Shown: positions 14,661 to 52,888 of the stretch, one piece after another
Numbering within the stretch: position 1 is the stretch's first letter
Layout of the letters: each line of letters starts with the position of its first letter
NCBI GenBank assembly: GCA_965221925.1
Contig: OZ244924.1
Location: 1,161,352 to 1,225,351, forward strand
Origin: Dehalococcoidia bacterium
Lineage (GTDB): Bacteria > Chloroflexota > Dehalococcoidia > Lucifugimonadales > UBA2985
Length of the DNA stretch: 64,000 nucleotides
Reading direction: 5' to 3'
The notes under the pieces: generated by a model
What the model saw: the letters and a program-made list of their open reading frames with translations, nothing else
Told to the model about the DNA's origin: nothing
Database searches by the model: none
Translations under genes and position numbers: made by a program

Positions 14661-14700
14661 AAGGGTAAGACATTGTGCGACATCGAAAGGCAAAAAAAAC

Positions 14701-16594: not shown

Positions 16595-17658
16595 ACGATG
16601 GCGGCCTTGCCGGGCTTGACCTCGACCTCCTTGACGAAGGAGTGGACGAACGCCTTGGTCTCGGTGAGCTCGCTGGTTTTGAGGAACTCGCTCATCTCGG
16701 CGGCGAAGGTGGCGATGGTGTCGGCGCTGTCGAGGAACTGCCGTCGCTCTGCGAGCAGCCCTCTCGCCTCCTCAGCGGCGGCCTCCAGCCTCTCTTTGCG
16801 CTCCCGGTGCTCCCTGATGCGGTCCGAGGCGTCGGCCATCTCGATGTCGGTGGTCTCGATGGCGTGCCATATCCGACCCAAGCGCCGCTTGACCTCCTCA
16901 AGCTCCTCCTCGATGGTCTGAAGCCTATGGCGCTGCTCGCGGGCGATGCCGTCCATCTCCTCGTCCACCAGCTTCACCAGGTCGCAGATGTTGCTCTCCG
17001 TGAGGATGTTCTCCCGGATGTTGCTGACGATCAGGTCCTCGAAGCGCTTAGAGTTGAGCCTGGGCGTCTTGCACATCCCCTGGCCCTTTTTGAGCAGGGA
17101 GTGGCAGACGTAGTAGGGGAACTGGCCGCTCTTGGAGTACTGGCCGGTGAGTGCCCTCTTGCAGGTCTTGCACTTGGCGATGCCGCTGAGCAGGTAGGGG
17201 CTGGAAGCCCGTCGGGGGTTCACCTTCTTGGGGGCGCGGGACCCCAGCAGCTTCTTGACCTTCCGGAACTCCCCCTTGGAGACGATGGCGGGGTGTGCGT
17301 CCTCGACCCGCACGGGCGGAGCGCCGTCCTTGGCGGTAGTCCCCCAGACCAGGGTGCCCGTGTAGGCTTCGTTGAGCAGCACGTTGTGGACGGTGGTCTT
17401 GAGCCACTGCTTTCCCCTGGGACTGGCAACGCCCTCGGCGTTGAGGGTCTTGGTCACGTCGAGGATGCTACTGCCCTGGAAGGCCATGTCGAAGATGCGC
17501 CGTACCACGGCGTCGGCGGGAGGGTCAACCTCCAGCTTGGGGCGCTTCTTCGGCCCGTCCTGGACGTAGACCCTCCTGTAACCGTAGGGGGCGTAGCTGG
17601 TGACCCAGAATTCCCTCGAAGCGGCCTCCCGCACCCCCCGCGTCACTTCTTGGGCCAA
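16399..17658 (-). pseudogene. C-terminal 418 codons of element B's large serine recombinase gene, whose 5' part is at 45266..45688
   Basis: Begins (L)AQEVTRGVREAASREFWVTSYAPYGYRRV, exactly after the resolvase domain, and is colinear with the 15395..16594 product. There is no catalytic domain upstream; attL follows instead. Confidence 0.85.
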
Positions 17659-17681
17659 GATATCGGTTATCCAATCAACAC
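17646..17681. other. attL of the 27.6-kb island (B arm, AA core, P' arm)
   Basis: CTTCTTGGGCC-AA-GATATCGGTTATCCAATCAACAC. The P' arm is the inverted repeat (20/23) of the arm at 45244-45266. Confidence 0.75.
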
Positions 17682-17951
17682 AAGAAAATCAGGTACACAT
17701 GGGCAGTGGGACTTGAGGTCAGTTGACGACAGGAGTTGATCGCGAGTCCTGTTTGGTTCGATCCCACGTAGGTTGGACAGCGTGTAGCAGGTGTCTCCGC
17801 GATTGTCTCTCTGTTCGATCAGGCCACAAGCGTTGACTAGGGTGTGCATCACCTGGCTGACTCGACCCTCGGAGACGCCCAGCCAGAGGGCCAGATGCTC
17901 GCTGGGATAATCGCGTGATCGGCCCCAATTGCCAGGATGGCTCAGCGTGAG
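17667..17951 (-). pseudogene. Winged-helix DNA-binding protein remnant with no canonical start codon
   Basis: The open frame reads ...RSRDYPSEHLALWLGVSEGRVSQVMHTLVNACGLIEQRDNRGDTCYTLSNL. The only ATG/GTG in frame (17852) lies inside the HTH. Confidence 0.35.
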
Positions 17952-21763: not shown

Positions 21764-21991
21764 ACGTTTCCTCTCAGACTCTCACTGTGCGGCATCGTCC
21801 CTTGTTGTACCTCCATGTACTACTGCCGACACCTTGCCTAGCGCCGTGATCGGACCATTCGCTGAGTTGAGTTTCCGGAATAGCCATGTCTTCCCCGGTA
21901 CGATCCCTATAGCATCGTCAGCGCAGCCGTAGTTGCGGTTGTTGAGTGTTAGTGTAACTGCTATAATTCTGACATTCAAGGAGTTGTGCCG

Positions 21992-22588
21992 ATGCCGAGT
22001 TCGCCGGAACAGATCATGACCTACGCCGCTACCTTGCCCGAGGGCTCGCTGTTGCATCCGAAGGTACTGCTGCACCTGGGGACCAGGGCAGTAATTGACC
22101 AGGCGTTGTCCCGTCTTGTCAAGAAAAGAAGTTTGATGCGGGTTTGCCACGGCATCTACGTATGCCCCGTAGAGACCCGCTTCGGTCTTCGCCCGCCTGC
22201 CGTCGAGAAGGTGATCGCGTCGCTGTCGGTGCTCTGGGGAGAGACGATAGTGCCTTGTGGCGGAGCTGCAGCGAACGCCCTTGGGCTCACCACCCAGATG
22301 CCGGTGCAGTCGGTTTACCTGACTTCCGGACCTAATCGCAAGCTGACGCTCGGCGAGTTGACGGTGGGGTTGCGCCATGCCCCCCGTTGGCAACTGGCGG
22401 CACCGTACCGACCCGCAGGTGAGGCGGTTCGTGCGCTGTCGTGGTTGGGGCCTGACAAAGTAGAGGCGGGCTTGGATGTGATTGGGCGCAAACTCTCATC
22501 CGAGGACCTTGAGGAATTGGCCGCGTTGCGGGCTATCATGCCAACTTGGATCGCCGAACCAGCGAGCGCATTGGTCGCCGATAGGTAA
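21992..22588 (+). CDS. AbiEi-like/DUF6088-type wHTH protein with no AbiEii partner adjacent
   Basis: ALSRLVKKRSLMRVCHGIYVCP is typical of AbiEi-family N-termini. ATG 21992 lies 8 nt after AAGGAG, and TATAAT is at 21962-21967. Confidence 0.55.
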   Translation: MPSSPEQIMTYAATLPEGSLLHPKVLLHLGTRAVIDQALSRLVKKRSLMRVCHGIYVCPVETRFGLRPPAVEKVIASLSVLWGETIVPCGGAAANALGLTTQMPVQSVYLTSGPNRKLTLGELTVGLRHAPRWQLAAPYRPAGEAVRALSWLGPDKVEAGLDVIGRKLSSEDLEELAALRAIMPTWIAEPASALVADR

Positions 22589-22627
22589 CGCACATCTTCG
22601 ATGAATCAGAGATAGAGGAGATAGCGG

Positions 22628-25600
22628 TTGACCATCGACACCGCAATCCGTGAAGGGCAGGTACTGACCGGGCCGCTGTTCAGTGAACCGATGCGGGTGG
22701 AGACCGTTCGCACGAACGGTCTGGGTTCCGTGGAGGCGGGCCTTGTCGGGCAGCGCACCGAGCAATTCCGGCGTGTTACGTTGACCTCAGTCGACATCGC
22801 GAGACTCGTTATCGCCGACCCCACCCTTTCATACAACAGCGACGGACGGCTCCTGCGCCTTGGCCTCCAGGCGTATTCCCTCGGCATTGCCCACGAGTTC
22901 GACCCCTACTTCGGGTTGTCCATCTCTCGAGTGGACCCACTACCCCACCAGCTTGAGGCCGTCTACGACTATCTCCTGAAGCTCCCCAGCGTACGGTTCC
23001 TGCTGGCAGACGACGCTGGGGCCGGTAAGACCATCATGGCCGGTCTGCTCGTCCGCGAGCTCAAGTTGCGGGGGCTGGCCGAGCGGGTCCTTGTTGTGTG
23101 CCCGGCGAACCTGACCTTCCAGTGGCAGCGGGAGCTGAGAGAGAAGTTCGACGAGCGGTTCTTTGTCCTGAAAGGCGGCGATATCCGAGACCAGTTCGGC
23201 GTCAACCAGTGGCTCGACCAGAAGCAGACCATCACGTCCCTCGACCTCGCCAAGCGCGAAGATATTCTTCCCGGTCTACGGCAGGTGCGTTGGGACTTGG
23301 TGATTGTCGACGAGGCCCATCGCATGTCGGCGCGGGACGAGACCCACAAGAGCCAGCGCTACAGGCTGGGTGAGCTGCTCCGGGACAGCGCCGACAACGT
23401 CTTGCTGCTCACAGCTACACCTCACAAGGGTGACCCTCACAACTTCACGCTGTTCCTACAACTGCTGGATCGAGACGCCTATGCCGACGTAAAGTCCATT
23501 CGCGAGGCGATGGAACGGCGGCGAGCGCCCTTCTACCTTCGCCGCACCAAAGAGGCGATGGTCTACTTCCCTGAGCGCCAGCTAGACGGCGCTTGGGTCG
23601 CCAAGCCCGTGTTCACAAAGCGAATCACACGCACGGTCGGCTTCACCATGGATGATGCCGAGTTCGAGCTGTACCAAGCGGTTACCCGGTTCGTGAAACG
23701 GCAAAGCGCCCGCGCTGCGGCCCAGGGCGACGACTCGAGGGCTCGCGCCGTCGGCTTCCTCATGTCTTTGTATCAGCGACGGTTGGCCTCCAGCGCCCAC
23801 GCGATGCGCCGTTCGCTTGAGAATCGGGCCAACCGCCTGGAAGAGGGACTAAAGCAGGCCCAAGACTTGGCGCGGACTGCGCCGCCGAGACTTCCCGACT
23901 GGGAGGACCTAGAAGAGCTTGAGGACACCGAGCGCGAACGTTTTGAGCGGATGCTGGAGGCGGTCACGCTAGCAGGGAACGCCGACGAAGTCCGCAAGGA
24001 GATTGCCGAGCTCAAAGAACTCGCGGCTCAAGCGACCGCCGTGGAGTCATCGGGTGAGGAGGCCAAGCTCAGCAGACTCAAGGACATCATGCAAGAGCAG
24101 GGGTTCTTCGAAGACCCGGACCAACGGCTGCTGATATTCACTGAGTTCAGGGATACCCTGGACTATCTTGTGGAGAGGCTGAAGTCCTGGGGCTTCCGGG
24201 TAGGCTCCATCCACGGGGGCATGAGGCCCGGCTCACGGGATGAGGTTGGCTCCCGTCTCTACACCGAACAGCAGTTCCGCGACGGAAACATCCAGGTCTT
24301 GGTGGCGACCGAAGCGGCCGGCGAGGGAATTAACCTCCAGTGCTGCCACATCCTCTTCAACTACGACATTCCCTGGAACCCGAACCGGCTAGAACAGCGC
24401 ATGGGGCGCATCCACCGCTACGGCCAGCGTTTCGACTGCCTCATTTTCAACTTCGTAGCGGCTAACACCATCGAAGGGCATGTGCTCCAACGCCTCTTGA
24501 CCAAGCTTCAAGAGATCAGGGATGCCCTCGAAGATGACGCCGTGTTCAATGTCGTTGGCGAGGTTTTGCCCGCCGCCCAGGTGGACCGGGTCTTTCGCAA
24601 CTACTACTCTGGTAAGCTGGGCGACGCCGATCTTGAGGACCGTCTGCTGAGGGACGTGGATGAGGGACGCTTTCGACAGATCTGTCAGACGGCGCTTGAA
24701 GGTTTGGCTGCCAAAAAACTCAACTTGGAGATGCTGGTGGAACGCCGCGCACGCGCCCAGGAGCGCCGGGTGGTGCCGGAATCCATAGCCCGCTTTCTAT
24801 CGGAAAGCGCTGAGCAGGCATCCCTCACCCTCAACCCGGTGCGCCACTTGCCTCACTCCTTCGAGCCGGGCCGAACGCCGACTGCCTTGAAGAAGTATGA
24901 GCGCGATCCCGACTGGAGCCTTACCGAGTTGGTGTCCCGCTATCCGCGCCTATCTACGGACCGGGACATAGCGGAGGAGCACAATCTGGAATGGGTCACG
25001 CCCGGTCATCCGCTGTTCGAGGCGCTCCGCCGCCATTGCGTCGAAACCAGCAGGGACGCCTTTGCCACGGGAGCCTGTTTTCACTCTCTTGACCACGAGA
25101 CCCCGGCGCGCCTTGATTTCTACCGGGCGCGGGTCGTCGATGGTCTCGGACACGTGATCCACGAGCGGCTCTTCACCGTGGAACTAGCGGAGGGCGGTGT
25201 GCCTTGCCTCCGGGAGCCGGAGATACTCGGCAACCTGACTCCCACTGCCGCTCCGGAGGGCCTTCCCACGGTGGCATCGCTATCGGAGCCAACCGACTGG
25301 CTGAACGAGCACGCATTCACCCCCTTCATCGAAGAGGTACGCGCCGAGCGGGTGGCAGAAGTCGACCGCATCGCAGAGCACGTCGAGCTGTCGCTGACCG
25401 AGGTGCTGCTGCGGACCGACCAGGAGGTCGGCCGCGCCTCCGAGGATATGGAGAAGCAGGTCACAGGCGCTGAGGGGCGCTTGGCCCAAGCCGAATCCCG
25501 TCACGACGAGGCTATGGCACGCCGCGAGCGGCGGCGGCGTGAGCTTACCCAGCAGAGAGCGCTCACACTTCAGGGCGTCGAACGACTGGCCAGCATTCTG

Positions 25601-26065
25601 ATCCTGCCCCACCCAGAGCGCGAGACTCCCGAAGTAAAGCGCCTACGTCCGAACGCCGAGACTGAGATGACCGCCATGCGGGTGGTGATGGAGTACGAGG
25701 CCGCCAAGGGCCGCCAGGTGTACGACGTTCACGAGAAGAACCTTGGCTACGACGTGACCAGCCTGGATGTGAACTCTGGCGTATTGCGCCTGATAGAAGT
25801 AAAGGGCTTGGCCTCCGCCTCGGGTACTATCCTGTTGTCGCCAAATGAACGCCGGGTGGCCGAGGACCGCCGCGACTGCTACTGGCTATACGTCGTCACC
25901 AACTGCGCTGCCGATCCGCAGCTACAGGATCCCATCGAAGACCCAGCCCGCTTCCCTTGGCATGAGGTCAGCAAGGTGCAGCACTACTGGCTGAACGTGG
26001 ATGCCATGACCAAGCCCATGAGGATTGCGGACGAGCGGGCGCAATATGGAGAAAGACATGATTGA
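22628..26065 (+). CDS. SNF2/RapA-type helicase with a C-terminal DUF3883 (endonuclease-fold) domain
   Basis: Helicase motifs are LLADDAGAGKTIMAG, LVIVDEAHRM, LLLTATPHKGD, ATEAAGEGINLQ and QRMGRIHRYGQ. The C-terminus YDVHEKNLGYDVTSLDVNSGVLRLIEVKG...CYWLYVV is DUF3883-like. TTG start follows AGAGGAG. Confidence 0.9.
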   Translation: MTIDTAIREGQVLTGPLFSEPMRVETVRTNGLGSVEAGLVGQRTEQFRRVTLTSVDIARLVIADPTLSYNSDGRLLRLGLQAYSLGIAHEFDPYFGLSISRVDPLPHQLEAVYDYLLKLPSVRFLLADDAGAGKTIMAGLLVRELKLRGLAERVLVVCPANLTFQWQRELREKFDERFFVLKGGDIRDQFGVNQWLDQKQTITSLDLAKREDILPGLRQVRWDLVIVDEAHRMSARDETHKSQRYRLGELLRDSADNVLLLTATPHKGDPHNFTLFLQLLDRDAYADVKSIREAMERRRAPFYLRRTKEAMVYFPERQLDGAWVAKPVFTKRITRTVGFTMDDAEFELYQAVTRFVKRQSARAAAQGDDSRARAVGFLMSLYQRRLASSAHAMRRSLENRANRLEEGLKQAQDLARTAPPRLPDWEDLEELEDTERERFERMLEAVTLAGNADEVRKEIAELKELAAQATAVESSGEEAKLSRLKDIMQEQGFFEDPDQRLLIFTEFRDTLDYLVERLKSWGFRVGSIHGGMRPGSRDEVGSRLYTEQQFRDGNIQVLVATEAAGEGINLQCCHILFNYDIPWNPNRLEQRMGRIHRYGQRFDCLIFNFVAANTIEGHVLQRLLTKLQEIRDALEDDAVFNVVGEVLPAAQVDRVFRNYYSGKLGDADLEDRLLRDVDEGRFRQICQTALEGLAAKKLNLEMLVERRARAQERRVVPESIARFLSESAEQASLTLNPVRHLPHSFEPGRTPTALKKYERDPDWSLTELVSRYPRLSTDRDIAEEHNLEWVTPGHPLFEALRRHCVETSRDAFATGACFHSLDHETPARLDFYRARVVDGLGHVIHERLFTVELAEGGVPCLREPEILGNLTPTAAPEGLPTVASLSEPTDWLNEHAFTPFIEEVRAERVAEVDRIAEHVELSLTEVLLRTDQEVGRASEDMEKQVTGAEGRLAQAESRHDEAMARRERRRRELTQQRALTLQGVERLASILILPHPERETPEVKRLRPNAETEMTAMRVVMEYEAAKGRQVYDVHEKNLGYDVTSLDVNSGVLRLIEVKGLASASGTILLSPNERRVAEDRRDCYWLYVVTNCAADPQLQDPIEDPARFPWHEVSKVQHYWLNVDAMTKPMRIADERAQYGERHD

Positions 26066-28751
26066 CACAGACGTAATTGCCGGTACTCGACGGCTTCCGT
26101 CGGGCGCACGCTTCTTCAAATGTGCGCTCCAAGTGAATCCTCACCACTACGCTAAGACCTTTCGCGGCAAAGAGACCGCCGGTAGTCCAGAAGATTACGC
26201 CAAAGTTATCGTTGAGAAGGCTGAGGAACTTGACGTGTCGGTCCTTGCCATCACCGACCATAACAGCGTCACTGATGTCCGGATGTTTCGGGATGCCTCT
26301 AAAGGTCGCAGCGTCACGATACTCCCTGGATTCGAGCTTACCTCCTCTGATGGTATTCACGTTCTTTGCATTTACCCTCCGCACATCGCTGAAGAGCAGC
26401 TCGAACGGTTCTTGGGTGAGTTCGGGATTCGAAAGACCGAACCCTCGTCCGACCCATCCGGTGAGCCTTTCGATGATATCCTCAAGAAAGTCCGCGAACA
26501 GGGAGGAATCAGCATTGCCGCGCATGTCACAACCGCGCACGGACTCTTTAGTGTCCTAGAGGGGCAAGCACGAATCCGAGCATGGCAGTCTAACGACTTG
26601 CTTGCTATCCAGATTCCCGGTCCTACCAATGACCTGTCCGATGACGCGCGACCGATAGTGGAGAACAAGAATCGTGACTACCACCGTGCCCATAGCGCCG
26701 GAGAGGAACTGGCGGTTGCCGTAGTCAATGCCAAGGACATCACGAAGCCCGAGGACTTGGAAGATGACTCCGCAACCTGTTGGATAAAGATGTCTGAGGT
26801 TACTATTGAAGGATTGCGTCAAGCTTTCCTCGATCCGGACTCTAGGATACGCCTCAATAGTGATCCCACGCCGGAAGAGCATGCAGAGCTAGTCTCGCTT
26901 GGATGGGAAGGTGGGTTCCTAGACGACACGGCCATCCACTTCAATCAGAATCTCAACGTTCTGGTTGGAGGACGTGGTGCTGGAAAATCCACCGTCATAG
27001 AGAGTCTGAGGTATCTGCTTGACTTAGAGCCTGTCGGCGAAGAAGCACGCAAGGCCCATCAAGGGCTAGTGCGCCAAGTGCTCCGCAGTGGGACGAAGGT
27101 CTCGCTTCGTATACGCTCCTACCGTCCGGGGAAACAAGAATATCAAGTGGAGCGGACCGTGCCCAACCCACCTGTAGTCCGCGACGAGAATGGTCAGATT
27201 TCGAATCTCCTCCCTTCAGATATTCTCCCTCGGGTTGAGATTTACGGACAGCATGAAATATCCGAACTCGCCAGAAGTCCTGAGAAACTCACCTCGTTAC
27301 TCACTCGCTTCGTCAGGCGCGACGAAGCACTAGAAAGGCGCAAGGCTAGCGTGCGCCGGGACCTTGACCAGACCAGAAAGTCTCTTGGTGACGTGAGCTC
27401 TGAGATCCAGCAAATCGATGAGCGCATGTCTGCACTACCGGGCCTAGAGGAAACACTCAAGCGCTTTCAGGACGCTGGCCTTGAAGACCGTTTGCGCGAG
27501 CAGAGCCTCCTGGTTCGTGAAGAGCGTGTGCTCAATTCGATTCCTGAGCGTACGCGGGTTTTCCGAGAGTGCCTAGAGATGATCCGAGGGGAATTGCCTA
27601 TAGACCGTGCCTTCTTGTCAGAGAAGGCCCTTGAAGAGCTGCCCGGTAAAGACATTCTCACGGACGCCAACGGGGCACTCGAACGTCTTAGCCGTGACCT
27701 CGAGCAGATCGCGCAACAGATTGAGGAAGCGCTCCAACGAGCTGACGCAGGAATCAAAGAGGTTCAGGCCCGCTGGGGCGAACGTAAACGCGATGTAGAA
27801 GCTGCTTACCAGAAGATACTGCGGGATCTACAGCAGTCGGCTGTGGATGGGGAGGAATTCATCCGACTGAGACGTGAGATTGAAGGATTGCGCCCTCTAC
27901 GTGAGCGGCGACCTTTACTGGAAAGACTAGAGAGAGAACACCAGCAACATCGGCGCGAATCCCTTGCTGAGTGGGAGGACCTTAAATCCACCGAGTTTCG
28001 ATTGCTCGACAGCGCAGCAAGGAGCGTAAGCCACAAACTACGAAACCGTGTTCAGATTGAAGTCATTGCCGCAGGCAACCGGGAGAGCCTCTTCAACGTG
28101 TTCAAGGAGGAGATTGGAGGTCGCCTCTCGGAAGCCATAGACAGAATTAGGCAACTGTCAGAAGTCTCTTTACCTGAGTTCGTCAAGTGCTGTCGGGACG
28201 GTGCGGAGGCAGTTGAAAAGAAGTACGCGATTCCACCATCTCAAGCAGAACGGCTCGCCAAAGCACCCTCCGAGACCCTAATGCGTATCGAGGAGTTGGA
28301 GCTGCCACCAACAACAGTGATTAAGCTTAACACGGCCTCCGCTGGCGATCTCCCTTCCTGGCGTTCGCTCGACGAGCTCTCTACCGGCCAGAAGGCTACT
28401 GCGGTGCTCCTCCTTCTGCTGCTAGAGTCCGATGCGCCCCTCATCGTCGATCAGCCTGAGGACGACCTTGACAATCGCTTCATCACAGAGGGTGTAGTGC
28501 CTAAGATGCGGGAGGAGAAACGCCGCCGACAGTTTGTCTTCTCCACTCACAACGCGAACATTCCAGTCCTTGGTGATGCGGAACTAATTCTGGGGCTCAC
28601 CCCATTGGGTGAAGCAGGGAGGGGGAAGGCGACCATCAGACATGAGCATATGGGTTCGATCGATGATCGTCCAGTTCGCGAACTCGTTGAAGAGATACTT
28701 GAAGGAGGCAAAGATGCCTTCGAGACACGAAGGCTAAAGTATGGCTTCTGA
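26058..28751 (+). CDS. PHP-domain phosphoesterase fused to an SMC/RecF/OLD-like ABC ATPase with a long coiled coil
   Basis: PHP motifs are FKCALQVNPHHY, LAITDHNSV and ISIAAHV. The P-loop is VLVGGRGAGKSTVIESL, followed by ~400 aa of coiled coil and the signature/Walker B LSTGQKATAVLLLLLLESDAPLIVDQPEDDLD. ATG 26058 follows GGAG and overlaps the helicase stop; TTG 26025 and ATG 26046 are alternatives. Confidence 0.8.
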   Translation: MIDTDVIAGTRRLPSGARFFKCALQVNPHHYAKTFRGKETAGSPEDYAKVIVEKAEELDVSVLAITDHNSVTDVRMFRDASKGRSVTILPGFELTSSDGIHVLCIYPPHIAEEQLERFLGEFGIRKTEPSSDPSGEPFDDILKKVREQGGISIAAHVTTAHGLFSVLEGQARIRAWQSNDLLAIQIPGPTNDLSDDARPIVENKNRDYHRAHSAGEELAVAVVNAKDITKPEDLEDDSATCWIKMSEVTIEGLRQAFLDPDSRIRLNSDPTPEEHAELVSLGWEGGFLDDTAIHFNQNLNVLVGGRGAGKSTVIESLRYLLDLEPVGEEARKAHQGLVRQVLRSGTKVSLRIRSYRPGKQEYQVERTVPNPPVVRDENGQISNLLPSDILPRVEIYGQHEISELARSPEKLTSLLTRFVRRDEALERRKASVRRDLDQTRKSLGDVSSEIQQIDERMSALPGLEETLKRFQDAGLEDRLREQSLLVREERVLNSIPERTRVFRECLEMIRGELPIDRAFLSEKALEELPGKDILTDANGALERLSRDLEQIAQQIEEALQRADAGIKEVQARWGERKRDVEAAYQKILRDLQQSAVDGEEFIRLRREIEGLRPLRERRPLLERLEREHQQHRRESLAEWEDLKSTEFRLLDSAARSVSHKLRNRVQIEVIAAGNRESLFNVFKEEIGGRLSEAIDRIRQLSEVSLPEFVKCCRDGAEAVEKKYAIPPSQAERLAKAPSETLMRIEELELPPTTVIKLNTASAGDLPSWRSLDELSTGQKATAVLLLLLLESDAPLIVDQPEDDLDNRFITEGVVPKMREEKRRRQFVFSTHNANIPVLGDAELILGLTPLGEAGRGKATIRHEHMGSIDDRPVRELVEEILEGGKDAFETRRLKYGF

Positions 28752-28760
28752 GGGTGTGAG

Positions 28761-29990
28761 ATGAACCGATCTCAGCTCCTAGAGTTGTTATTGAATCGCG
28801 AGAACTCTGGCTTGGAGTTCAAACGAGACGACATACAACCAGAGAAGCTTGCGGCAGAGATTGTGGCTCTGCTGAATCTGGAGGGCGGGCACATCTTGCT
28901 TGGTGTCGAGGACGATGCAACTGTTACCGGCCTTACACGAGAGCCGCCTAAGGCCGAAGAATGGGTTATGCAAATAGCGCGAGACCACATCCAACCCAGT
29001 GTGATCCCGTATTGGGAGACACTAGATTGGGACAATGGCACTGTTATCGGAGTTGTCTCTCTTCCTGCGGATGCACCCGATAAGCCTTATAAGGCGAAGC
29101 GCGGCCCTTCTTGGGTCACACGAATCCGTGTGGGAACGACGACTCGGGACGCATCAAGAGAAGAGGAGGAGCGACTCTATCAACAATCTGGACGGTTGAG
29201 ATACGGCCTAAAACCAGTACTAGGAACAGGTCTCAACAGTCTAGATGTTAGACGCCTCCGGGACTATTTCGTTCGAGTGCGTGGAGAAGGTACCTTTCAT
29301 ACCGACGATGCAGACCAGTACCAAAGATTACTTTGCAACCTAGAGCTTGCCACAGAATCAGCCGGATATGCTTCGACGACGGTGGACGGAATACTGTTGT
29401 TTGGCCAAAACCCTGGTCGGTTCCTCCCCCAATCGGGTATACGAGCCATCTGTTACCTCGGTCAGGAACCGGACTATGCTGTCCGTGCAGACGAGGACAT
29501 CAAGGGGCCTCTTGTTCCCCTAGGGAGTGCCGATGGTTCGACAATTGAATTTGGAATTGTTGATAGAGCCTGGGACTTTGTTCGGCGCAATACCACACCA
29601 ATAGCGTGGCTTGAAGGAGCACAACGGCACGAGCGTTGGGAATACCCAGAAGATGCCCTCCGAGAAGTCTTGGTCAATGCACTGGTCCATCGGGACTACA
29701 GCATATCCGGTACCGACACCACGTTGTCTATCTTTTCCAACCGTCTAGAGATTCAAAGCCCAGGCAGGTTGCCAAATACCGTGACTATAGACGGGATGAG
29801 ATCAGGAATGCGTTATGCCCGAAATCAGACTTTGGTCAATGTCATGCGGGACTACGGCTACGTCGACGCTCGCGGGATGGGGGTACGGAACAAGGTAATT
29901 CCAAGTATGCTTGCCCACAATGGGACAGACCCCGACTTGATAGAGGGCGAGTACAGTTTCACGGTGCGCCTTTGGAAGGAGGCGACGTGA
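28761..29990 (+). CDS. AlbA_2 (Schlafen-type) N-terminal domain plus HATPase_c_4-like C-terminal domain protein
   Basis: N-terminal ENSGLEFKRDD...LLNLEGGHILLGVEDD and C-terminal REVLVNALVHRDYS...IQSPGRLP. It starts 9 nt after the previous gene. Confidence 0.8.
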   Translation: MNRSQLLELLLNRENSGLEFKRDDIQPEKLAAEIVALLNLEGGHILLGVEDDATVTGLTREPPKAEEWVMQIARDHIQPSVIPYWETLDWDNGTVIGVVSLPADAPDKPYKAKRGPSWVTRIRVGTTTRDASREEEERLYQQSGRLRYGLKPVLGTGLNSLDVRRLRDYFVRVRGEGTFHTDDADQYQRLLCNLELATESAGYASTTVDGILLFGQNPGRFLPQSGIRAICYLGQEPDYAVRADEDIKGPLVPLGSADGSTIEFGIVDRAWDFVRRNTTPIAWLEGAQRHERWEYPEDALREVLVNALVHRDYSISGTDTTLSIFSNRLEIQSPGRLPNTVTIDGMRSGMRYARNQTLVNVMRDYGYVDARGMGVRNKVIPSMLAHNGTDPDLIEGEYSFTVRLWKEAT

Positions 29991-29992
29991 CT

Positions 29993-32900
29993 ATGATCCC
30001 CACAGCGTGCAAGCGGCTCGCCGAGGTGGACTTCCCCATCGCAGAGGTGTCCAAGCACGCGGCGCGGGAGAAGTCGATACGCCACGGGCACCCATCCACG
30101 CTGCACTTGTGGTGGGCGCGGCGACCGTTGGCGTCGTCGCGGGCGGTGCTGATGGCGTTGCTGCTGCCGGACCCGTGCGACCCCCACTGCCCGCCGGGGT
30201 TCAAGTCGCAGGTGCGGGAACTGCTTCTCGCCATGCGCAGCCGCGCCTCCGGCTGGGACGCGGACGTCGCCACCGACGAAGGGCTGCGCCGGACGCTGCT
30301 GCGGTTCATCGCCGACTTTGCCAACTGGGACAACGCCGCCAATCCCGACTACCTGGAGACGGGCCGGGCGCTGGTGCGGGCCGCTCACCCGGAGGAGACG
30401 CCCCTGGTAGTCGACCCCTTCGCGGGCGGTGGTTCCATCCCCTTGGAGGCCCTGCGGTTGGGCTGCGAAGCCTTCGCCAGTGACCTCAACCCAGTTGCCT
30501 GCCTCATCCTCAAGGTGATGCTGGAAGACATCCCCCGCCATGGTCCGGGCCTCGCCAAGGAACTGCGCAAAGTCGGCGCAGAGATCAAGGCCAAGGCTGA
30601 GAAGGAGCTGGCCGACCTCTACCCCAAGGACCCGGACGGCGCAACGCCCATCGCCTACCTCTGGGCGCGGACGGTGCGCTGCGAAGCCCCCAACTGCGGC
30701 GCGGAGATTCCCCTCATGCGCTCCCTGTGGCTGTTGCAGGAAGCCCAATCGCAAGTGGGCACTCAAGACCAACGTGGTGCGGGATGACGGCGTTCCGCCA
30801 CGCGTGGAGTTTGAGATTTTCGAGCCAGAGTCCGATAGAGATGTGGCCGCAGGGACTGTGGCACGCGCCAGGGCAACCTGCGTCTGCTGCGGCGCGGTTC
30901 TGCCGCCGGACCGGGTGCGGACCCAGCTCTCCGTCCAGCGCGGCGGTGGCGACGCGGTATTTGACGAGAGCAGCAAGCGCGTTGGAGGGGCGCGTATGAC
31001 GGCGGTGGTGACGCTCAAACCCGGGGAGCAGGGCCGACACTACCGCCTTCCCACGGACGCCGACTACGAGGCGGTGCACCTAGCCCAGGAACGCGTCACG
31101 GAGATGCTGGACGAGTGGGAGCGTGGAGGCAGGCAGGGCCTCTGCCCCGTGCCGGACGAGCCGTTGAATCCAATCCGTCCCTCCCCGAATGCCCGAGGTC
31201 TCTCAGCGGTAACCCGTTATGGCATGTCTAGTTTCGGGGACCTATTCAATGTCCGCCAGAAGGCAGTTCTGGTGGAGTTAGGGCAGTTGGCTCAAAGGGA
31301 ACCGTCCAATGATTCGCCTATCATTCAAACAACGGTTGCGATGTGTCTGGATAAAGTCGCGATGCAGAACAGTTCGTGTTGCCGTTGGAAGCCTTCTGGT
31401 GAATCGTTAATGGACACGTTTGGTCGCCAGGCTCTTCCAATGGTTTGGGACTTCGCTGAGTCCAGCCCCATCAGCGGTTCGACCGGTGATTTTCAATCCC
31501 AAATGCAATGGCTTGTGCAGATTGTTGAGCGTTCCCCCATCAGGGTTTCTGCGAATGTCCAGTCCGCCGACGCAACTGCCCACCCTCTTCCGGATCAGTC
31601 TGCCGGGGTCTGGTTTACCGACCCGCCGTACTATGATGCGATCCCCTATGCGGACCTTTCCGACTTCTTTTTGGTCTGGCTCAATCGAACTCTGCCGCGT
31701 CATCCCTTGCTGCGCGATCCATTTGATGCAAGCAACACACTCTCACCCAAATTACAAGAGTGTGTGTGGAATCAATCCTACAGTTACGGTGGCAGGCCTA
31801 AAGATGCAGCATTCTTTGAGTCCACGATGGCGAAAGCCTTTGAGGAGAGCCGACGCTTTCTCTCTCAAGGAGGGGTAGGTGCGGTTATATTCGCACACCA
31901 GAGCACCGAAGGTTGGGAAGCATTCCTAGGTGGTCTAATCAAGTCTGGGTGGATAATGACTGCTTCGTGGCCTATAGCCACGGAAATGGCCTCCAGGATT
32001 CGCGCCCGCGACAATGCGTCTCTCGCCACCAGCGTCCACTTGATCTGCCGCCCGCGGCTTGAGGATGCGCCGGTCGGCGATTGGGCCGATGTGCTTCGGG
32101 AGCTGCCGGGCCGCGTTGGCGACTGGATGCAGCGACTGCAGGGCGAGGGCGTCCGGGGCGCGGACCTGGTCTTCGCCTGTGTCGGGCCAGCGCTGGAGAT
32201 ATACAGCCGCTACTCCGGTGTGGAGACGGCGGAGGGTCGGGTGGTCGCCCTGCCGGAGTACTTGGAGAGGGTGTGGGAGGTGGTGGGGCGCGAGGCGTTG
32301 CAGCAGGTCCTGGGCACGGCGGAGGCCCAGGCGCGCAACGGCGCGGCGGGCGCGCTGGAGGAGGACGCCCGCCTGACGGCGCTATTCCTCTGGACGATGC
32401 AGAGCACGGCGGACAGCACTCCCTCCGGTCACAGGACTGACCCAGGCGACGATGATGATAGTGACGACGAAGAGGATGAAGCGCCCAGCAGGAAGGCATC
32501 CGGATACAGCCTACCCTTCGACGTGGCCCGCCGTTTCGCCCAGCCTCTTGGCGTCCACTTGGACGACTGGGAGTCGCGCATCATCAGGACGGAGAAGGGC
32601 GTGGTCCGTCTCTTGCCCGTCTCGGAGCGGGGAAAGCAGCTCTTCGGCGAGTCCGGCGTTGCCGCCGCAGCCGACGAGATGGACGCCGCATCGAATGCTT
32701 CACCCCAGTTAAGCCTCTTCCCGGAAGATGCGCCGCCGGTGCGGGGCCGGGCGCGGCGTCGGGGTAAGTCAGCGACGGTGACGGCTGATGGGATAGAGCC
32801 TACGCTGTCGGCGACGACTCTGGATCGGGTCCATGCCGCCATGCTGCTACAGGCGTCGGGCCGCAGCCAGGCGCTCCGTAACCTGCTGCGGGCTGAACAG

Positions 32901-33011
32901 GAGCGCAGCCCCGACTTCCTGCGCCTAGCCAACGCCCTGACGGCCCTCTATCCTCGCGGCAGCGAAGAGAAGCGCCTGCTCGACGCTATGCTGCTGGCTG
33001 TGCCGCGGTGA
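29993..33011 (+). pseudogene. DUF1156-family DNA methyltransferase (DPPY type) interrupted by a +1 frameshift at ~30734
   Basis: MIPTACKRLAEVDFPIAEVSKHAAREKSIRHGHPSTLHLWWARRPLASSRAV is the DUF1156 hallmark. Motif I VVDPFAGGGSIPLEA lies in frame 1 and motif IV FTDPPYYDAIPYADLSDFF in frame 2. The junction reads SLWL|CRKPNRKWALK with an extra T in CTGTTGCAGG (track ORFs 29636..30787 and 30540..33011). Confidence 0.85.
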
Positions 33012-33054
33012 CCCGGCTCAATGAGGGCAAATACTTTCGTACAGGAGGGAAAAC

Positions 33055-33306
33055 ATGTCAGGTAACGGGAAACTCCTAGAGCGCATCACGGCGCGCCCAG
33101 ACGTCTTTGGCGGGAAACCGATTATCCGCGATATGCGGATATCGGTGGAGCTAATTCTGAGCTTGCTGAGCCAGGGAGCCCCCCAGGAGGAGCTCCTGGA
33201 CGACTACCCCGGACTGGAACCGGAAGACATCCGCGCCTGCATCGCCTACGCTCACACGGTCATAGCAGGGGACACGCTGGCTTCGGTTTCGGTTGCTGAG
33301 GCATGA
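33055..33306 (+). CDS. DUF433-family small protein (putative antitoxin)
   Basis: ITARPDVFGGKPIIRDMRISVELILSLLSQG...EDIRACIAYA. Confidence 0.8.
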   Translation: MSGNGKLLERITARPDVFGGKPIIRDMRISVELILSLLSQGAPQEELLDDYPGLEPEDIRACIAYAHTVIAGDTLASVSVAEA

Positions 33307-33659
33307 GGTTCCTGGTAGACCGATGCGCCGGACGCCGATTGGCAGAGTGGCTCCGCAATGACGGCCATGACGTGCTCGAAGCTCAAACCCTCGGCCCTGA
33401 TCCTGGGGACCGGGCCTTGCTGGAGCTTGCAAACTCGGAAGATCGAATTCTGGTCACAATAGATACGGACTTCGGGGAGTTGATTTATCTGCATGACGTC
33501 CCACACGCTGGACTGGTCCGCCTGCCGGATGTGCCGGTCGAGGAGCGCCTCGCACTGGCGGCTGAGGTGATCAATCGCCATCGGCAGGCATTGGAAGACC
33601 GTGCAGTGGTAACCATACGCGGCGGAAGAGTCCGGATATCACATCCGCCAACGCCTTGA
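33303..33659 (+). CDS. DUF5615-family PIN-like protein (putative toxin partner of DUF433)
   Basis: MRFLVDRCAGRRLAEWLRNDGHDVLEA...ILVTIDTDFGELI. ATGA overlap with the DUF433 gene. Confidence 0.75.
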   Translation: MRFLVDRCAGRRLAEWLRNDGHDVLEAQTLGPDPGDRALLELANSEDRILVTIDTDFGELIYLHDVPHAGLVRLPDVPVEERLALAAEVINRHRQALEDRAVVTIRGGRVRISHPPTP

Positions 33660-33682
33660 GTGAGGGGGTAAGAGTCTTGCCA

Positions 33683-36472
33683 ATGGAACCCTGGTACAAA
33701 GTAGTAACTCTCCGGAAGGAAGTCCGCGAAGGGCGGTCCTTTAGCCCGGACGAATTCGCCATCGCCTTGGAGCAGGTGGTTGCAGGGACTGCGCCGCCGG
33801 ACTACAGCGACCCGGCGCAGTTCTTCTCCCGCACCTGCTTCACACGCGCGCTGACGGAGCACTCCGGCATGGTGCTGCGACGCCTGTCCGGTAGGACGGA
33901 GAACACCGCGCCAGTCCTGACACTCATCACCCAATTCGGCGGCGGAAAGACCCACACCCTCGCCTCGCTGTATCACCTCGCCAATGCCGGACGGGATGCC
34001 GGCGCTTTGCCCGGCGTCTCGGAGCTTCTGCGGGAATCAGGAATCTCTGAGGCCCCTGCCGCTCGTGTCGGCGTCTTTGTTGGCAACGCCTGGGATCCGT
34101 CCGAGGGGAAGGAGACCCCCTGGATCGATTTGGCCCGGCAACTGGCGGGCAATGATGGCGTCGCCGCCCTCGGCAGCGCAGCAGAAACAACACCCCCTGG
34201 GACCGAGGCATTGGCAAGGGTGTTCGCCGCAGCCAATGCGCCCGTGCTGCTCCTGTTCGACGAGGTGCTGAACTTCGTCAACCGCCACCGTCCCATGGCC
34301 GACTCCTTCCATGCATTCCTTCAGAACCTCACTGTCGCCGTCACCGGTTCGACCCATGCGGCTGCGATCGTCAGCCTGCCCCGCAGTCAGATTGAGATGA
34401 CCGAGTGGGACCAGGAGTGGCAAGACCGCATCACTAAGGTCGTGCGCCGCGTCGCTCGCGACCTCATCGCCAACGGCGAGTCGGAGATCAGCGAGGTCGT
34501 TCGCCGACGCCTGTTCGAGGACCTGGGTAGCGAGCGTGTTCGACGACGCATCGCCCAGACCTTCGCGGACTGGTGCTTCGAGCGTAGCGCGCGCCTTCCC
34601 TCGGAGTGGACGGCCGTGGACACGGCTACTAAATCGCCGAGAGGGAGGGATGTTCTCAGGAGCCGCTTCGAGGCGTGCTATCCCTTCCATCCCGCGACCC
34701 TCTCCGTCTTCCAGCGGAAGTGGCGCGCCCTCCCCCAGTTCCAGCAGACACGGGGCGCGCTGGCAATGCTGGCGCAATGGATTTCCTGGACCTCACGGGA
34801 GCAGTTCCGGCAAGCGCGGACGGAGCCGCTTATCACCCTTGGGTCCGCGCCTCTGGACGTACCGGAGTTCCGCGCGGTGGTCCTAGGACAGCTGGGCGAG
34901 TCCCGTCTCGACGTAGCCATAGACGCAGACCTCGCTGGGGAGACGGCGCAAAGCAGTGCCCTGGACGCAGATACCAAGGGGGCTCTACGCGACATCCACC
35001 GCAGGGTTGGCACAGCGATCCTGTTTGAGTCCTCCGGCGGACAGGTCGACAAGGTGGCACACCTGCCGGAGCTGCGATTCGCCCTCGGCGAGCCGGAGAT
35101 CGAAACGACTACCATCGACAATGCTGCCTCGGCCTTGGAGAAGTCCGGCTTCTTCATGCGCAAGGTCGGTACGGACGGCTATCGCATCCACCATCAGGCG
35201 ACGCTGCGGAAGGTGGTCAGCGATCGGCGCGCCTCCCTTGACGAGGAGACAGAGATCAAGCCTGCAGTCCGCAAGGTCGTGCAGGAAGAATTCACCCGCG
35301 GCGCACCGGTTCCCGTCAACTACTTCCCGGAGGATGGCGACGCAGTGCAGGACTCGCCCCGCCTGACGCTGATCGTCCTGGACCCTGCGGAAGAGTGGCG
35401 GGGGAGCGACCAGCTTGCAGAACGCATTGGCCGTTGGACCAAGGAACGTGGGAAGTCCCCGCGACTCTACCCTGGGGCATTGGTCTGGTGCGCCAGGAAG
35501 CCGGGGCGTGAGCTGCGTGAGAGCGTCGAGTTGTGGCTTGCCTGGCGAAGAGTGGCCCAGGAGGTTTCGCAGGGCATTCTTGGCGCTGAGTTTGACCAGG
35601 CGGAGCGCGCCGATTTGCAGGCCAGGGTCAGGGATGCGGAAGAGGCGGCCAAGGACGAGGTATGGGTGGGGTACCGCTTCGTGGCGCTGGGGGATACGCA
35701 AGCGTCGGATGGGCTGAAGGTGATCGACCTCGGCTCCGGCCATTCCAGCGGGAGCGAGACGCTCTGCGGGCGCGTTATCGCTGCGTTGAAATCGGGGGCG
35801 TTGCTCAACGAGTCCGTGGGCGCAGGGTACATCGATCGACATTGGCCGCCAGCGTTCAAGGAGGCGGGAGCCTGGCCGCTAACCAGTCTGCGCCAGAGTT
35901 TCCTGAACGGAGCTTTGACTCGACTGATGGACCCGGACGCCGTGCTTCGACAGCGGATTGTGGAGTTCGTGGATGCAGGAGACTTTGGGCTGGCCTCAGG
36001 AGATAAGGGAGGCGGCGAATATGAAAGGGTGTGGTACAGGGAACCGGTAGGGACGGATGAGGTAGCTTTTGAGTCTGGGGTCTTTCTGTTGACCAAGGCC
36101 AAGGCTGAGCAACTTCGGAAGACACCCGATGACACGAAGCCCGCGCAACCGGACCCTCAGCCTAACCCAAGCACTACGACTGAGCCGGATCCCCCGCCCG
36201 GTCCTGGCGAAACCCAGGTCGGGCTTCCCATCCAGACTGGTCAGAGAGCGACACTGCGTATCAAGGGAACCGTGCCCCCGGAAGTCTGGAATCGGCTCGG
36301 AACGCGATTCCTGCCGAAGCTGCGTTCTGGTGATGACTTGATCGTGGGCGTCGAGTTCTCTGTAAGCGTCGATGCAGGTCTATCACAAGGCTTCCAGTTG
36401 GAGTTGCGGCAAGCCCTCACAGATCTAGGTCTCCAAGAACAAGTATCGGTGGAGACATCGCAAGGTCAGTAG
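33683..36472 (+). CDS. DUF499-family ATPase
   Basis: MEPWYKVVTLRKEVREGRSFSPDEFAIALEQVV...PAQFFSRTCFTRAL...LITQFGGGKTHTLASLYHL. ATG 33683 follows GAGGGGG; TTG 33656, overlapping the DUF5615 stop, is the alternative start. Confidence 0.85.
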   Translation: MEPWYKVVTLRKEVREGRSFSPDEFAIALEQVVAGTAPPDYSDPAQFFSRTCFTRALTEHSGMVLRRLSGRTENTAPVLTLITQFGGGKTHTLASLYHLANAGRDAGALPGVSELLRESGISEAPAARVGVFVGNAWDPSEGKETPWIDLARQLAGNDGVAALGSAAETTPPGTEALARVFAAANAPVLLLFDEVLNFVNRHRPMADSFHAFLQNLTVAVTGSTHAAAIVSLPRSQIEMTEWDQEWQDRITKVVRRVARDLIANGESEISEVVRRRLFEDLGSERVRRRIAQTFADWCFERSARLPSEWTAVDTATKSPRGRDVLRSRFEACYPFHPATLSVFQRKWRALPQFQQTRGALAMLAQWISWTSREQFRQARTEPLITLGSAPLDVPEFRAVVLGQLGESRLDVAIDADLAGETAQSSALDADTKGALRDIHRRVGTAILFESSGGQVDKVAHLPELRFALGEPEIETTTIDNAASALEKSGFFMRKVGTDGYRIHHQATLRKVVSDRRASLDEETEIKPAVRKVVQEEFTRGAPVPVNYFPEDGDAVQDSPRLTLIVLDPAEEWRGSDQLAERIGRWTKERGKSPRLYPGALVWCARKPGRELRESVELWLAWRRVAQEVSQGILGAEFDQAERADLQARVRDAEEAAKDEVWVGYRFVALGDTQASDGLKVIDLGSGHSSGSETLCGRVIAALKSGALLNESVGAGYIDRHWPPAFKEAGAWPLTSLRQSFLNGALTRLMDPDAVLRQRIVEFVDAGDFGLASGDKGGGEYERVWYREPVGTDEVAFESGVFLLTKAKAEQLRKTPDDTKPAQPDPQPNPSTTTEPDPPPGPGETQVGLPIQTGQRATLRIKGTVPPEVWNRLGTRFLPKLRSGDDLIVGVEFSVSVDAGLSQGFQLELRQALTDLGLQEQVSVETSQGQ

Positions 36473-36722
36473 CGATTCTCGTCACTTCAAGCTGGAGAAG
36501 GCAAGAACTGGCTGGACCATTTGCGCCTGAGCGATCCGCGGAATGAGATTGGTTTGAGTAATCCCTAGCCGTGAGACATTCGTTGGGAGATGACGAAGAT
36601 AAGTAGGAAGGTCCAAGCTGATCGCCGATGAAATCGACCATGTGCTGGCAGACACCACGGCTTCAATAGCAGGATGGATGGAAGAAATAGACCAGTACCC
36701 ATGAGGATGAGGCGTCGTCCAG

Positions 36723-37781
36723 ATGTCGTTTGACAGAACAACATTGGAAAGTCTTCTTCTTGAAGAGGAATGACCATATCTCGATTTCAAGTCCGAGCAG
36801 TATCGGTTTATTGGGGAAAGCAGCAGCGTCAAGAGCGAACTGCTCAAGGACATCCTGGCGTTCGTTAACAGCAATCGATACCGCACTGCCCACATCTTGA
36901 TGGGTGTCCGGGAAGTTACAGGCGGACCAAGCGAGATCATTGGCGTAGATCGGCACTTGGATGACGCTGAGTTGCACCAATTCGTCAATAGCAAGACAAA
37001 CAGACCGGCAGAGTTCAACTATATCCCATTTCGGTTCGACGACAAAGAGATCGGGGTGCTTAACATTCCTCTTCAGATCCGTCCGGTCTATTCACTAAAG
37101 AATTACGGAAAAGTGGACGCGAACACCGTGTACCTGCGAGATGGGAGTTCAACAGGAATAGCCAATCCTGACGACATTGCAGACATGGGGCGTGCCCAGA
37201 CGCCTAAATTCCTTGAGTGGTTCATTCGACGACTACGGAATACTGCGATGCACGCTGTGACGGTTACTGAACAGCAATGGTTCGACCATCCTGGGCGACA
37301 ACGTGAGCACGATTCACTGGGACGTCCACAAGACTACAGAGGGGCCTGCGACTTGATTCTACGGCTAACAGAATCCAGACCGCTGGAGCCCACAGTCTTT
37401 TCGAAGGGTATCGATTCGTACGGCTCCCTCCGTTGGGTCTTTAGGATATTTGAAGAATTGGCCGCTCATTGCACCCAAGCAGTTCGAATCACTGGCCCCT
37501 CCCTCATCGAATTTGGGGCGCTGGCGCGGGCAATCTTGGAAATGGAAGGACGGGTGAACTCCGAGGCGAGAGTTTGGGATGAATTCCGGATCAGGATGAA
37601 AGATGAAGGGGACAGTCTGCCCAACCCGGCCAACTACAACGTCTTGAGCTTGGCACTTAAGGCGGTGCGTTTTGTTGAGGTTCTGGAGGACGAGGAACAC
37701 TACAGGGATCCCGACGTTATCGATCAGTTTAGAGGCGAGGTGCTACTGCAATCTCCCGAGTGGGGAGACTGGCGAAAGTAG
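36723..37781 (+). pseudogene. Second AlbA_2-domain protein, with an in-frame TGA at 36771-36773
   Basis: ATG 36723 gives MSFDRTTLESLLLEEE-TGA-PYLDFKSEQYRFIGESSSVKSELLKDILAFVNSNRYRTAHILMGVREV, in frame with track ORF 36897..37781. LDFK and ILMGV match the AlbA_2 pattern seen in 28761..29990. Confidence 0.5.
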
Positions 37782-37920
37782 CAACGGTCAGCTAAGGCAC
37801 CTGTCGGCTGCCAGAATCCGCGCTTCAGTCCGATGCCAAAGCCATTGTAGTAAATGGCAACCGTCATCCCTGTGGCTCGTAGTCTTCGTCCACCGAAAGA
37901 ATCGCCCCGAAGCGTCGCCC

Positions 37921-52876: not shown

Positions 52877-52888
52877 GTCACCAACCGC

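Follow-up and report, generated by a model that had tools for sequence, protein, structure and literature searches.

Introduction

Hma was proposed as a defence system by Payne et al. 2021 (PADLOC), and a 2026 survey in Nucleic Acids Research, which credits the earliest sighting to the 2013 HEPN survey of L. Aravind and colleagues, renames it the type 1 DUF499-centred BREX-related system (PMC12839542). Type 1 is defined by an additional, active PD-(D/E)xK nuclease at the C-terminus of the Snf2 helicase; type 2 is marked by a DUF3780 gene and an N-terminal HKD domain on the helicase (PMC12839542). In a 2024 study, HmaA of Halomonas meridiana by itself shielded E. coli from phage T4, and both its NOV_C nickase and its helicase were required (PMC11232893). 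Published hma loci carry insertions in 66.5% of cases, including Septu, PARIS and Ppl, and the hmaA–hmaB and hmaB–hmaC junctions are the hotspots. Here we describe an hma locus in a stretch of 64,000 nucleotides (nt) from a Dehalococcoidia bacterium (assembly GCA_965221925.1, contig OZ244924.1, positions 1,161,352 to 1,225,351), hereafter the window, in whose coordinates all positions are given. Judged by its gene content and by comparison with its relatives, the locus at 21986–36472 is very probably composite, made up of modules that have each been described on their own, share one orientation and are probably transcribed together, with an Hma backbone carrying cargo in both of its junctions.

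Ppl of E. coli, which joins a PHP domain to an ATPase, was reportedly introduced as a single-gene defence system by Gao et al. in 2020. The protein is a 3'-5' exonuclease of single-stranded DNA that is inhibited by nucleoside triphosphates (NTPs) and triggered by nucleotide depletion together with 3'-OH ends (PMC12904381). Some bacterial Schlafen proteins cut tRNA upon phage sensing, and the HisKinase architecture is the commonest of all bacterial Schlafens (bioRxiv 10.1101/2025.07.24.666596). In at least 1017 taxa, genes of this Schlafen–histidine kinase type (Schlafen-HisK) are linked with the core loci of BREX and BREX-related systems, where the survey speaks of a 'Schlafen RNase + minimal histidine kinase + wHTH' (winged helix-turn-helix) backup effector; PIN RNases figure there merely as less common accessories (PMC12839542). 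MADS is an operon of eight genes, mad1–mad8, and its detection model demands MAD6–8 (bioRxiv 10.1101/2023.03.30.534895).

Results

The backbone of the locus

The first gene of the backbone, hmaA (22628–26065, + strand), encodes a Swi2/Snf2 helicase of 1145 amino acids (aa) with a C-terminal NOV_C (DUF3883) PD-(D/E)xK nuclease. The protein matches the PADLOC HmaA profile PDLC00659 with an E-value of 6.5e-172 (residues 46–1091 against model positions 45–1131 of 1176) and the Pfam domains SNF2-rel_dom, Helicase_C and NOV_C, the last at residues 1013–1099 (1.2e-20). Its motifs are intact: GAGKT131, DEAH228, QRMGRIHR590 and D1042...E1057-V-K1059, the latter being the active-site residues of the extra nuclease that defines type 1. 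The second gene, hmaB (29993–33011, + strand), encodes a DUF1156 N6-adenine DNA methyltransferase and is interrupted by a +1 frameshift; the PADLOC HmaB profile matches both halves (2.6e-48 and 4.3e-66), and the N-terminal DUF1156 domain is found at 5.2e-23. The third, hmaC (open reading frame (ORF) 33656–36472, + strand, 938 aa), encodes a DUF499 AAA+ ATPase of the ORC/Cdc6-like kind, with PADLOC profile PDLC00662 matching residues 10–845 (1.3e-92), Pfam DUF499 at 9.4e-13, a Walker A motif GGGKT at 95–99 and a Walker B motif LLLFDE at 198–203. The three genes lie on one strand inside 14 kb in the order A-B-C, which gives HmaC the clustering with HmaA and HmaB that belongs to its definition. 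The marks of type 2, DUF3780 and an N-terminal HKD domain on the helicase, have no Pfam match among the operon proteins. Given the PADLOC matches to HmaA, HmaB and HmaC, the Pfam domains and the published type definition, the profiles identify the trio as Hma, that is, as a type 1 DUF499-centred BREX-related system.

An initial annotation of this DNA, made without database searches, had taken the trio for a previously predicted defence module resembling restriction–modification (R-M), and both the Hma literature and the PADLOC matches bear this out. We agree with it, too, that no stand-alone restriction endonuclease is obvious. It had named the DUF3883 domain, the PHP domain and the DUF5615 protein as candidate effectors; the first of these is the NOV_C nickase of HmaA, shown to be required in Halomonas, so that for the backbone the choice is largely settled by the literature. 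It had further suspected an overlap with MADS, which we do not retain. Like MADS, the locus is a multi-gene defence operon with a methyltransferase in a defence hotspot; the methylase gives a PADLOC match to mad2 (1.6e-5) and the PHP-ATPase of the locus one to mad3 (1.5e-12), and the ATPase, methyltransferase and helicase components of Hma are homologous to those of type 3 BREX (PMC12839542). These matches are weak and generic next to the strong Hma matches, the gene set is a different one, and no protein of the window operon matches mad6–8 in PADLOC, although MAD6, MAD7 and MAD8 are mandatory. PglZ is likewise missing among the PADLOC matches listed for the eight operon proteins (for two of them, the best 25 families), and the DUF499 ATPases form clades apart from BrxC (PMC12839542). 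That the locus is MADS or another BREX-type system is thus extremely improbable. Nor do all seven genes of the initial annotation match any one characterised system gene for gene: the modules each match separately described entities.

The window shares with described Hma systems the SNF2 helicase with C-terminal NOV_C, the DUF1156 methyltransferase, the DUF499 AAA+ ATPase, their order on one strand and the presence of cargo at both the A-B and the B-C junction. It differs from them in its frameshifted hmaB, in the absence of an N-terminal HEPN fusion from its DUF499 protein, and in a DUF6088 gene located 5' of hmaA in its lineage. The cargo is also different: the Halomonas prototype has Septu in the first junction (slot 1) and AAA_21 with an unknown gene in the second (slot 2).

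A scan of the genome collection with HmaA returned 80 loci of 72–95% identity, the nearest of them in metagenome-assembled genomes of Dehalococcoidia and other Chloroflexota. Proteins in this identity range are spread over Chloroflexota, Latescibacterota, Binatia, Alpha- and Gammaproteobacteria, Acidobacteriota, Gemmatimonadota, Spirochaetia and others (L001–L080). So broad a distribution over phyla at such identity suggests that the hma clade of the window has spread widely by recent horizontal transfer.

Cargo between hmaA and hmaB

The boundaries of slot 1 were compared by blastn with four related loci (L006, L008, L001 and L002). Two of these, L006 and L008, encode an HmaA 95% identical in amino acid sequence to that of the window, and match it at 91–92% nucleotide identity over 21932–26046; the alignment resumes at 29993, and a RES-domain gene stands in between. 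The stop and the resumption of homology define the slot to the base, as 26047–29992. Its GC content is 0.53–0.55, versus 0.62–0.68 in the hma genes. In 63 of 67 related loci, 0.6–7.6 kb lie between hmaA and hmaB; the two genes abut in the other four, three of which have the TGA of hmaA overlapping the ATG of hmaB (ATGA), the fourth leaving 12 nt between them. The cargo of the occupied slots is varied: YhcG nuclease, AAA_21 with DUF4276, ThsB-type TIR, OLD-family ATPase-TOPRIM, GmrSD-AlbA_2, a CAP12/Pycsar-type TIR domain protein, RES and HEPN proteins. The cargo slots of the window agree with the published insertion hotspots. The initial annotation had seen in this locus a version with extra enzymatic parts. 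The extra genes are indeed inserts, but insertions are common in hma loci, and the locus does not make a new variant.

The TrlF and Schlafen-HisK cassette

In the window, slot 1 is filled by two genes on the + strand: one for a TrlF-family protein of 897 aa with a PHP domain and an ABC/SMC-like ATPase (26058–28751), and one for a Schlafen (AlbA_2) protein of 409 aa with a HATPase_c_4 domain (28761–29990). The first protein scores 526 bits against the NCBIfam model NF045780, TrlF_fam_ATP (cut-off 350), over model positions 2–944 of 944, and 201.6 bits against NF042955, Ppl_antiphage, where the cut-off is 1000 and the best stretch covers residues 82–633; the PADLOC Ppl profile matches at 4.2e-42. 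By these scores the protein is a relative of Ppl within the TrlF family and not Ppl proper. It contains a Walker A motif GGRGAGKS, the motifs LSTGQ and LIVDQPE, and the PHP motifs NPHH and ITDHN; the Pfam match for PHP is weak, and AAA_21, AAA_23 and SMC_N are also matched. In their annotation, homologues on plasmids bear the same family name, for the origin of which literature searches gave nothing relevant, and a sequence search of the PDB with the protein found no match. With Ppl it shares the N-terminal PHP phosphoesterase, the ABC/SMC-like ATPase with a long coiled-coil insert and the size of about 890 aa. It differs in that Ppl is described as single-gene, whereas TrlF of the window's subclade is nearly always paired with a Schlafen-HisK gene.

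The Schlafen-HisK protein matches Pfam SLFN_AlbA_2 (2e-14) and HATPase_c_4 (3.1e-19), and its residues 14–21, ENSGLEFK, fit the Schlafen motif E-x4-(E/D)-x-K. The sole match in a PDB sequence search is 3lmm, an uncharacterised protein. The AlbA_2 domain with E-x4-E-x-K, the C-terminal HATPase_c_4 and the place inside a BREX-related core locus are those of the pSlfn HisKinase/HisKinase-HTH types. What sets the gene apart is its fixed place right after the TrlF gene, which neither the Schlafen preprint nor the BREX-related survey mentions.

A metagenome scan with the TrlF protein gave 80 loci (L081–L160) of 54–68% identity. Where there was room downstream, the gene next after TrlF was a homologue of the AlbA_2 + HATPase_c_4 gene in 77 of 78 loci, separated from TrlF by a median of about 10 nt. 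The PHP-ATPase and AlbA_2 genes, which the initial annotation had treated as separate inserts, are therefore one conserved two-gene cassette. As to co-occurrence with the Hma trio, for which it had proposed a check, 27 of the 78 loci are close Hma loci and 22 are distant Hma-like ones, in which the pair sometimes takes other positions, making 49 in all, while no Hma gene was seen in the remaining 29. The flanks of these non-Hma pairs range from R-M genes to housekeeping genes, including DAHP synthase, aminotransferases and RmuC.

The pairing does not extend to the whole TrlF family, of which 3462 homologues were counted. On plasmids of Xanthomonas and Staphylococcus (L161, L162), TrlF genes of 31–35% identity stand alone, which makes the Schlafen partner a trait of the subclade. 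The association is also asymmetric: slot 1 lacks a TrlF gene in 9 of the 12 Hma loci that have a Schlafen-type gene there, and the TrlF-partnered Schlafen genes are no nearer to the Schlafen gene of the window than the solitary ones. We considered a tightly co-evolving TrlF–Schlafen unit as well, and the correlation of pairwise identities, 0.43, gives this little support. Because TrlF is nearly never found alone and the Schlafen gene often occurs without TrlF, the data support a dependence of TrlF on its partner. We tentatively propose, as something that may well prove wrong, that TrlF of this subclade (at least about 54% identical) works only with the Schlafen-HisK gene some 10 nt downstream, the two forming an undescribed defence system made of a Ppl-like sensor of DNA ends or the nucleotide pool, or exonuclease, and a tRNA-cleaving Schlafen effector, and residing preferentially in the cargo slot of Hma and BREX-related loci. 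No description of a PHP-ABC protein paired with a Schlafen was found in the literature searched, including the BREX-related survey and the Schlafen preprint.

Cargo between hmaB and hmaC

Slot 2 of the window holds a small DUF433 gene (33055–33306, + strand, 83 aa; Pfam DUF433 1.5e-23) that overlaps by 4 nt the gene of a DUF5615/Mut7-C/PIN-like protein (33303–33659, + strand, 118 aa; Pfam DUF5615 1.5e-18, Mut7-C 1.1e-6, PIN_10 7.4e-5). DUF433 (COG2442) and PIN genes are said to have been predicted as type II toxin–antitoxin pairs by Makarova et al. in 2009. The window pair has the corresponding layout, two adjacent small genes in one operon, in which the DUF433 protein would be the putative antitoxin and the PIN-like protein the putative toxin, an RNase. 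It departs from the described pairs in its fixed position between hmaB and hmaC, where one or both genes also stand in 23 of 40 related Hma loci: DUF433 in 22, the PIN-like gene in 20 and both in 19. The putative toxin–antitoxin pair that had been noticed inside the operon is thus recurrent in the slot. The junction is essentially empty, with a gap of 48–245 nt, in seven loci. Identity to the window pair runs from about 29% to 92%, a range far wider than that of the flanking genes, and this suggests fast evolution or repeated replacement of the pair.

The composite block in relatives

The contig with the closest TrlF homologue (94%) has the gene order DUF6088, hmaA, TrlF, Schlafen-HisK, an intact hmaB of 970 aa and hmaC, and that with a 74% TrlF homologue has all eight genes of the arrangement, DUF433 and DUF5615 among them. 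For each of these contigs (L166 and L167) one unbroken collinear alignment covers window positions 21840–31160, with nucleotide identities of 84.6% and 78.5%. Recurrence of the DUF6088-hmaA-TrlF-Schlafen-hmaB order, the tight packing of all genes on one strand, and the presence of 49 of the 78 TrlF–Schlafen pairs in Hma or Hma-like loci would all be expected if the locus were one integrated, novel system of seven or eight components, with the PHP-ATPase, the Schlafen and the PIN/DUF433 proteins as obligatory subunits or alternative effectors, as the initial annotation read it. We regard this as improbable. Related loci dispense with cargo, four of them between hmaA and hmaB and seven between hmaB and hmaC, and the closest hmaA relatives, at 95% amino acid identity, hold another cargo gene. 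TrlF–Schlafen pairs also occur far from Hma genes, beside housekeeping genes; the GC content of the cassette is 8–15 points below that of the hma genes; and HmaA is active alone in E. coli (PMC11232893). A composite of an Hma backbone and exchangeable cargo accommodates these observations.

The frame break in hmaB

The coding sequence of hmaB is distributed over two ORFs, 29636–30787 and 30540–33011, the N-terminal frame ending at a TGA at 30785–30787. The frame break noted in the initial annotation traces to one surplus T within the TT doublet at 30734–30735 (+ strand): the window reads GTGGCTGTTGC, and seven close homologues have one T fewer there, most of them reading GTGGCTG-TGC. Removal of one T at 30734 yields a protein of 1007 aa, of which residues 3–1007 align with intact homologues at 46–80% identity. 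The context of the ATG at 29993, ATGATCCC, recurs in the majority of the 12 homologues with which it was compared; in two of them the start codon is GTG. Since the break separates the S-adenosylmethionine-binding motif DPFAGGG, on its 5' side, from the catalytic motif DPPY, on its 3' side, the HmaB enzyme in its sequenced form, and with it the modification arm, probably lacks activity. The TT doublet is not a repeat tract, which makes phase variation unlikely.

A second discontinuity in hmaB is of another kind. Blastn alignments with L001, L002, L006, L008, L166 and L167 break at 31160–31248 and resume at 31559–31609, and the segment 31162–31608 (+ strand) has no DNA-level alignment with any close relative. 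This variable segment is presumably the target-recognition domain, its position fitting the published insert of that domain (PMC12839542).

Lesions are found in the related loci as well. The hmaA gene of L166 (2412–5848) is split into parts of 836 and 295 aa, which may be an error since the contig is labelled 4x. L167 has an insertion sequence with a DDE transposase inside hmaB (12956–17129), L008 a premature stop in hmaA (about 12934–13009), and the DUF6088 match of L006 (9361–9955) is in three pieces, probably through frameshifts. Together with the frameshift in the window, the diversity of these lesions suggests recurrent inactivation of the R-M-like arm. One could go further and see in the locus a decaying, non-functional remnant, its R-M-like arm dead, the whole being lost, and its gene order a matter of history. 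The +1 frameshift between the two motifs of hmaB, the lesions of hmaA and hmaB in L166, L167 and L008, an adjacent second Schlafen-like gene with an in-frame TGA in its catalytic motif, and neighbouring recombinase genes without a resolvase domain all fit that view. Against it stand the other six genes, none of them truncated and all with their catalytic motifs preserved, and an HmaA that reaches 95% identity to full-length relatives. A one-base indel may stem from misassembly, and HmaA and the two cargo modules could plausibly work without HmaB. We therefore consider wholesale decay unlikely, though a good deal less so than an integrated system, and keep to the composite of modules.

Gene junctions and the 5' gene

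The seven densely packed + strand genes at 22628–36472 carry the domain set that the initial annotation had listed, as recovered here from the ORF list and from Pfam, PADLOC and NCBIfam profiles; the E-values, down to the 6.5e-172 of HmaA, exclude a chance origin of the matches. The starts of TrlF, hmaB and hmaC were refined by comparison with homologues. The listed TrlF ORF, 26025–28751 (908 aa), was shortened to the ATG at 26058, which has a ggag ribosome-binding site and leaves an 8-nt overlap with hmaA. The TrlF and Schlafen genes are 9 nt apart, the Schlafen gene and the hmaB ATG at 29993 are separated by 2 nt, and 43 nt lie between hmaB and the DUF433 gene. The hmaC ORF opens at a TTG at 33656, with a 4-nt overlap with the PIN-like gene; the probable start is the ATG at 33683, which gives a 23-nt gap, and DNA homology with relatives begins at 33678–33683. 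The described limit of 43 nt on gaps, with overlaps otherwise, thus holds with the refined starts, and one co-directional gene had been overlooked. This eighth gene (21986–22588, + strand, 200 aa; Pfam DUF6088 1e-22) encodes an AbiEi-like putative regulator 39 nt 5' of hmaA, and it occupies the same place in eight Chloroflexota loci and in L166 and L167. An ORF on the minus strand at 21782–22393, considered as a conserved neighbour, was rejected as the shadow of this gene.

Neighbouring genes

Just 3' of hmaC lies a second Schlafen/AlbA_2-type gene (36723–37781, + strand, 352 codons; Pfam 2e-11). An in-frame TGA at 36771–36773 falls within its E-x4-D-x-K motif and makes it a probable pseudogene. 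The gene is part of an extra segment, 36517–37914, of low GC content (0.54). In L002, hmaC is followed at once by the downstream flank, whose match to the window begins only at 37915. On the other side of the locus, two convergent and partly overlapping genes (15395–16594, + strand, and 16399–17658, − strand) each encode Recombinase and Zn_ribbon_recom domains and have no room for an N-terminal resolvase catalytic domain. The regions 15332–16413 and 16609–17730 match one segment of L002 in opposite orientations, so that they represent an inverted duplication.

Two minus-strand genes lie between the recombinases and the hma locus. The protein of 562 aa encoded at 20075–21763 has no Pfam, NCBIfam or PADLOC match, and 94 homologues in the protein collection; the segment is low in GC (0.51–0.56). 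In three other contigs the gene occurs singly, amid transposases and defence-type genes (GmrSD_C, SIR2_2, AAA_21), and its product has in the C-terminus a D...E-A-K pattern reminiscent of PD-(D/E)xK nucleases, making it a candidate for an uncharacterised defence gene. The protein of 636 aa encoded at 18000–19910 has no significant family match, RNase_H_2 at its C-terminus reaching only an E-value of 0.16, and more than 1000 homologues of near-constant length (about 636 aa) that are up to 94% identical. A second defence cluster lies at 48750–57674 on the minus strand, comprising a TIR protein (PADLOC PDC-S66, 5.6e-90), an HKD + Snf2 helicase (C3a139, 1.7e-42) and a type IIG/DrmMI-like restriction-methyltransferase of 1325 aa (6.2e-119). 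Scans of the whole 64-kb window for tRNAs and Rfam families were empty.

Discussion

A working scheme for the composite can be drawn from its parts. Published comparative analysis suggests that host DNA would be marked by HmaB, the N6-adenine methyltransferase, whose recognition domain is variable, and that the scanning or recognition of DNA would fall to HmaC, the ORC-like AAA+ ATPase; HmaA, a Snf2 translocase with a PD-(D/E)xK nickase, would attack invading unmodified DNA by nicking. With hmaB broken, HmaA may act alone without methylation, as in E. coli; alternatively, decay of the R-M-like arm may be under way. If E. coli Ppl is a guide, TrlF might be an NTP-gated 3'-5' exonuclease of single-stranded DNA that senses DNA ends. 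The Schlafen-HisK protein, with E-x4-E-x-K intact, would most likely be an abortive-infection effector that cleaves tRNA or other RNA, or alternatively a regulator, and with TrlF it could form an independent sensor/effector pair. The DUF433/PIN pair may be an addiction module that stabilises the locus, or a backup RNase, and the DUF6088/AbiEi-like protein could regulate transcription of the operon.

Several points weigh against this picture. The divergence of TrlF and that of HmaA are correlated (r = 0.77 over 16 loci), which together with the collinearity of the window, L166 and L167 means that the modules have been co-inherited in this lineage, and co-inherited modules might be functionally coupled. 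A scan for sigma-70 promoters and terminators found fewer sites than in shuffled sequences and none in the intergenic gaps; its model is uninformative for a Chloroflexota-like genome, and the result is silent on operon structure. The frameshift on which the inactivity of HmaB depends could be an assembly error. Overexpression of HmaB in Halomonas left phage sensitivity unchanged, so the methylation-based model of self and non-self is unproven. The score of TrlF falls a long way short of the cut-off for the Ppl equivalog, and the mechanism of Ppl may consequently not transfer to it. In the Schlafen preprint, defence was seen only with DUF262 and Ig-like fusions, the HisKinase type not being among them (bioRxiv 10.1101/2025.07.24.666596).

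The locus is a further example of a system already named and surveyed, with one experimental paper to its credit. Independent data confirm both Hma junctions as cargo slots with base-pair-sharp boundaries, and in the hma clade of the window the DUF433/PIN pair, complete or partial, is the commonest occupant of slot 2. The repeated, independent lesions in hmaA and hmaB hint that the R-M-like arm carries a fitness cost, and they bear on whether HmaA needs HmaB. The main novel lead is the PHP-ATPase and the Schlafen-HisK gene, which form one unit in at least 77 loci of diverse contexts. As the Ppl type has been treated as single-gene and Schlafen-HisK is without a demonstrated function, the pairing offers a testable partner for both.

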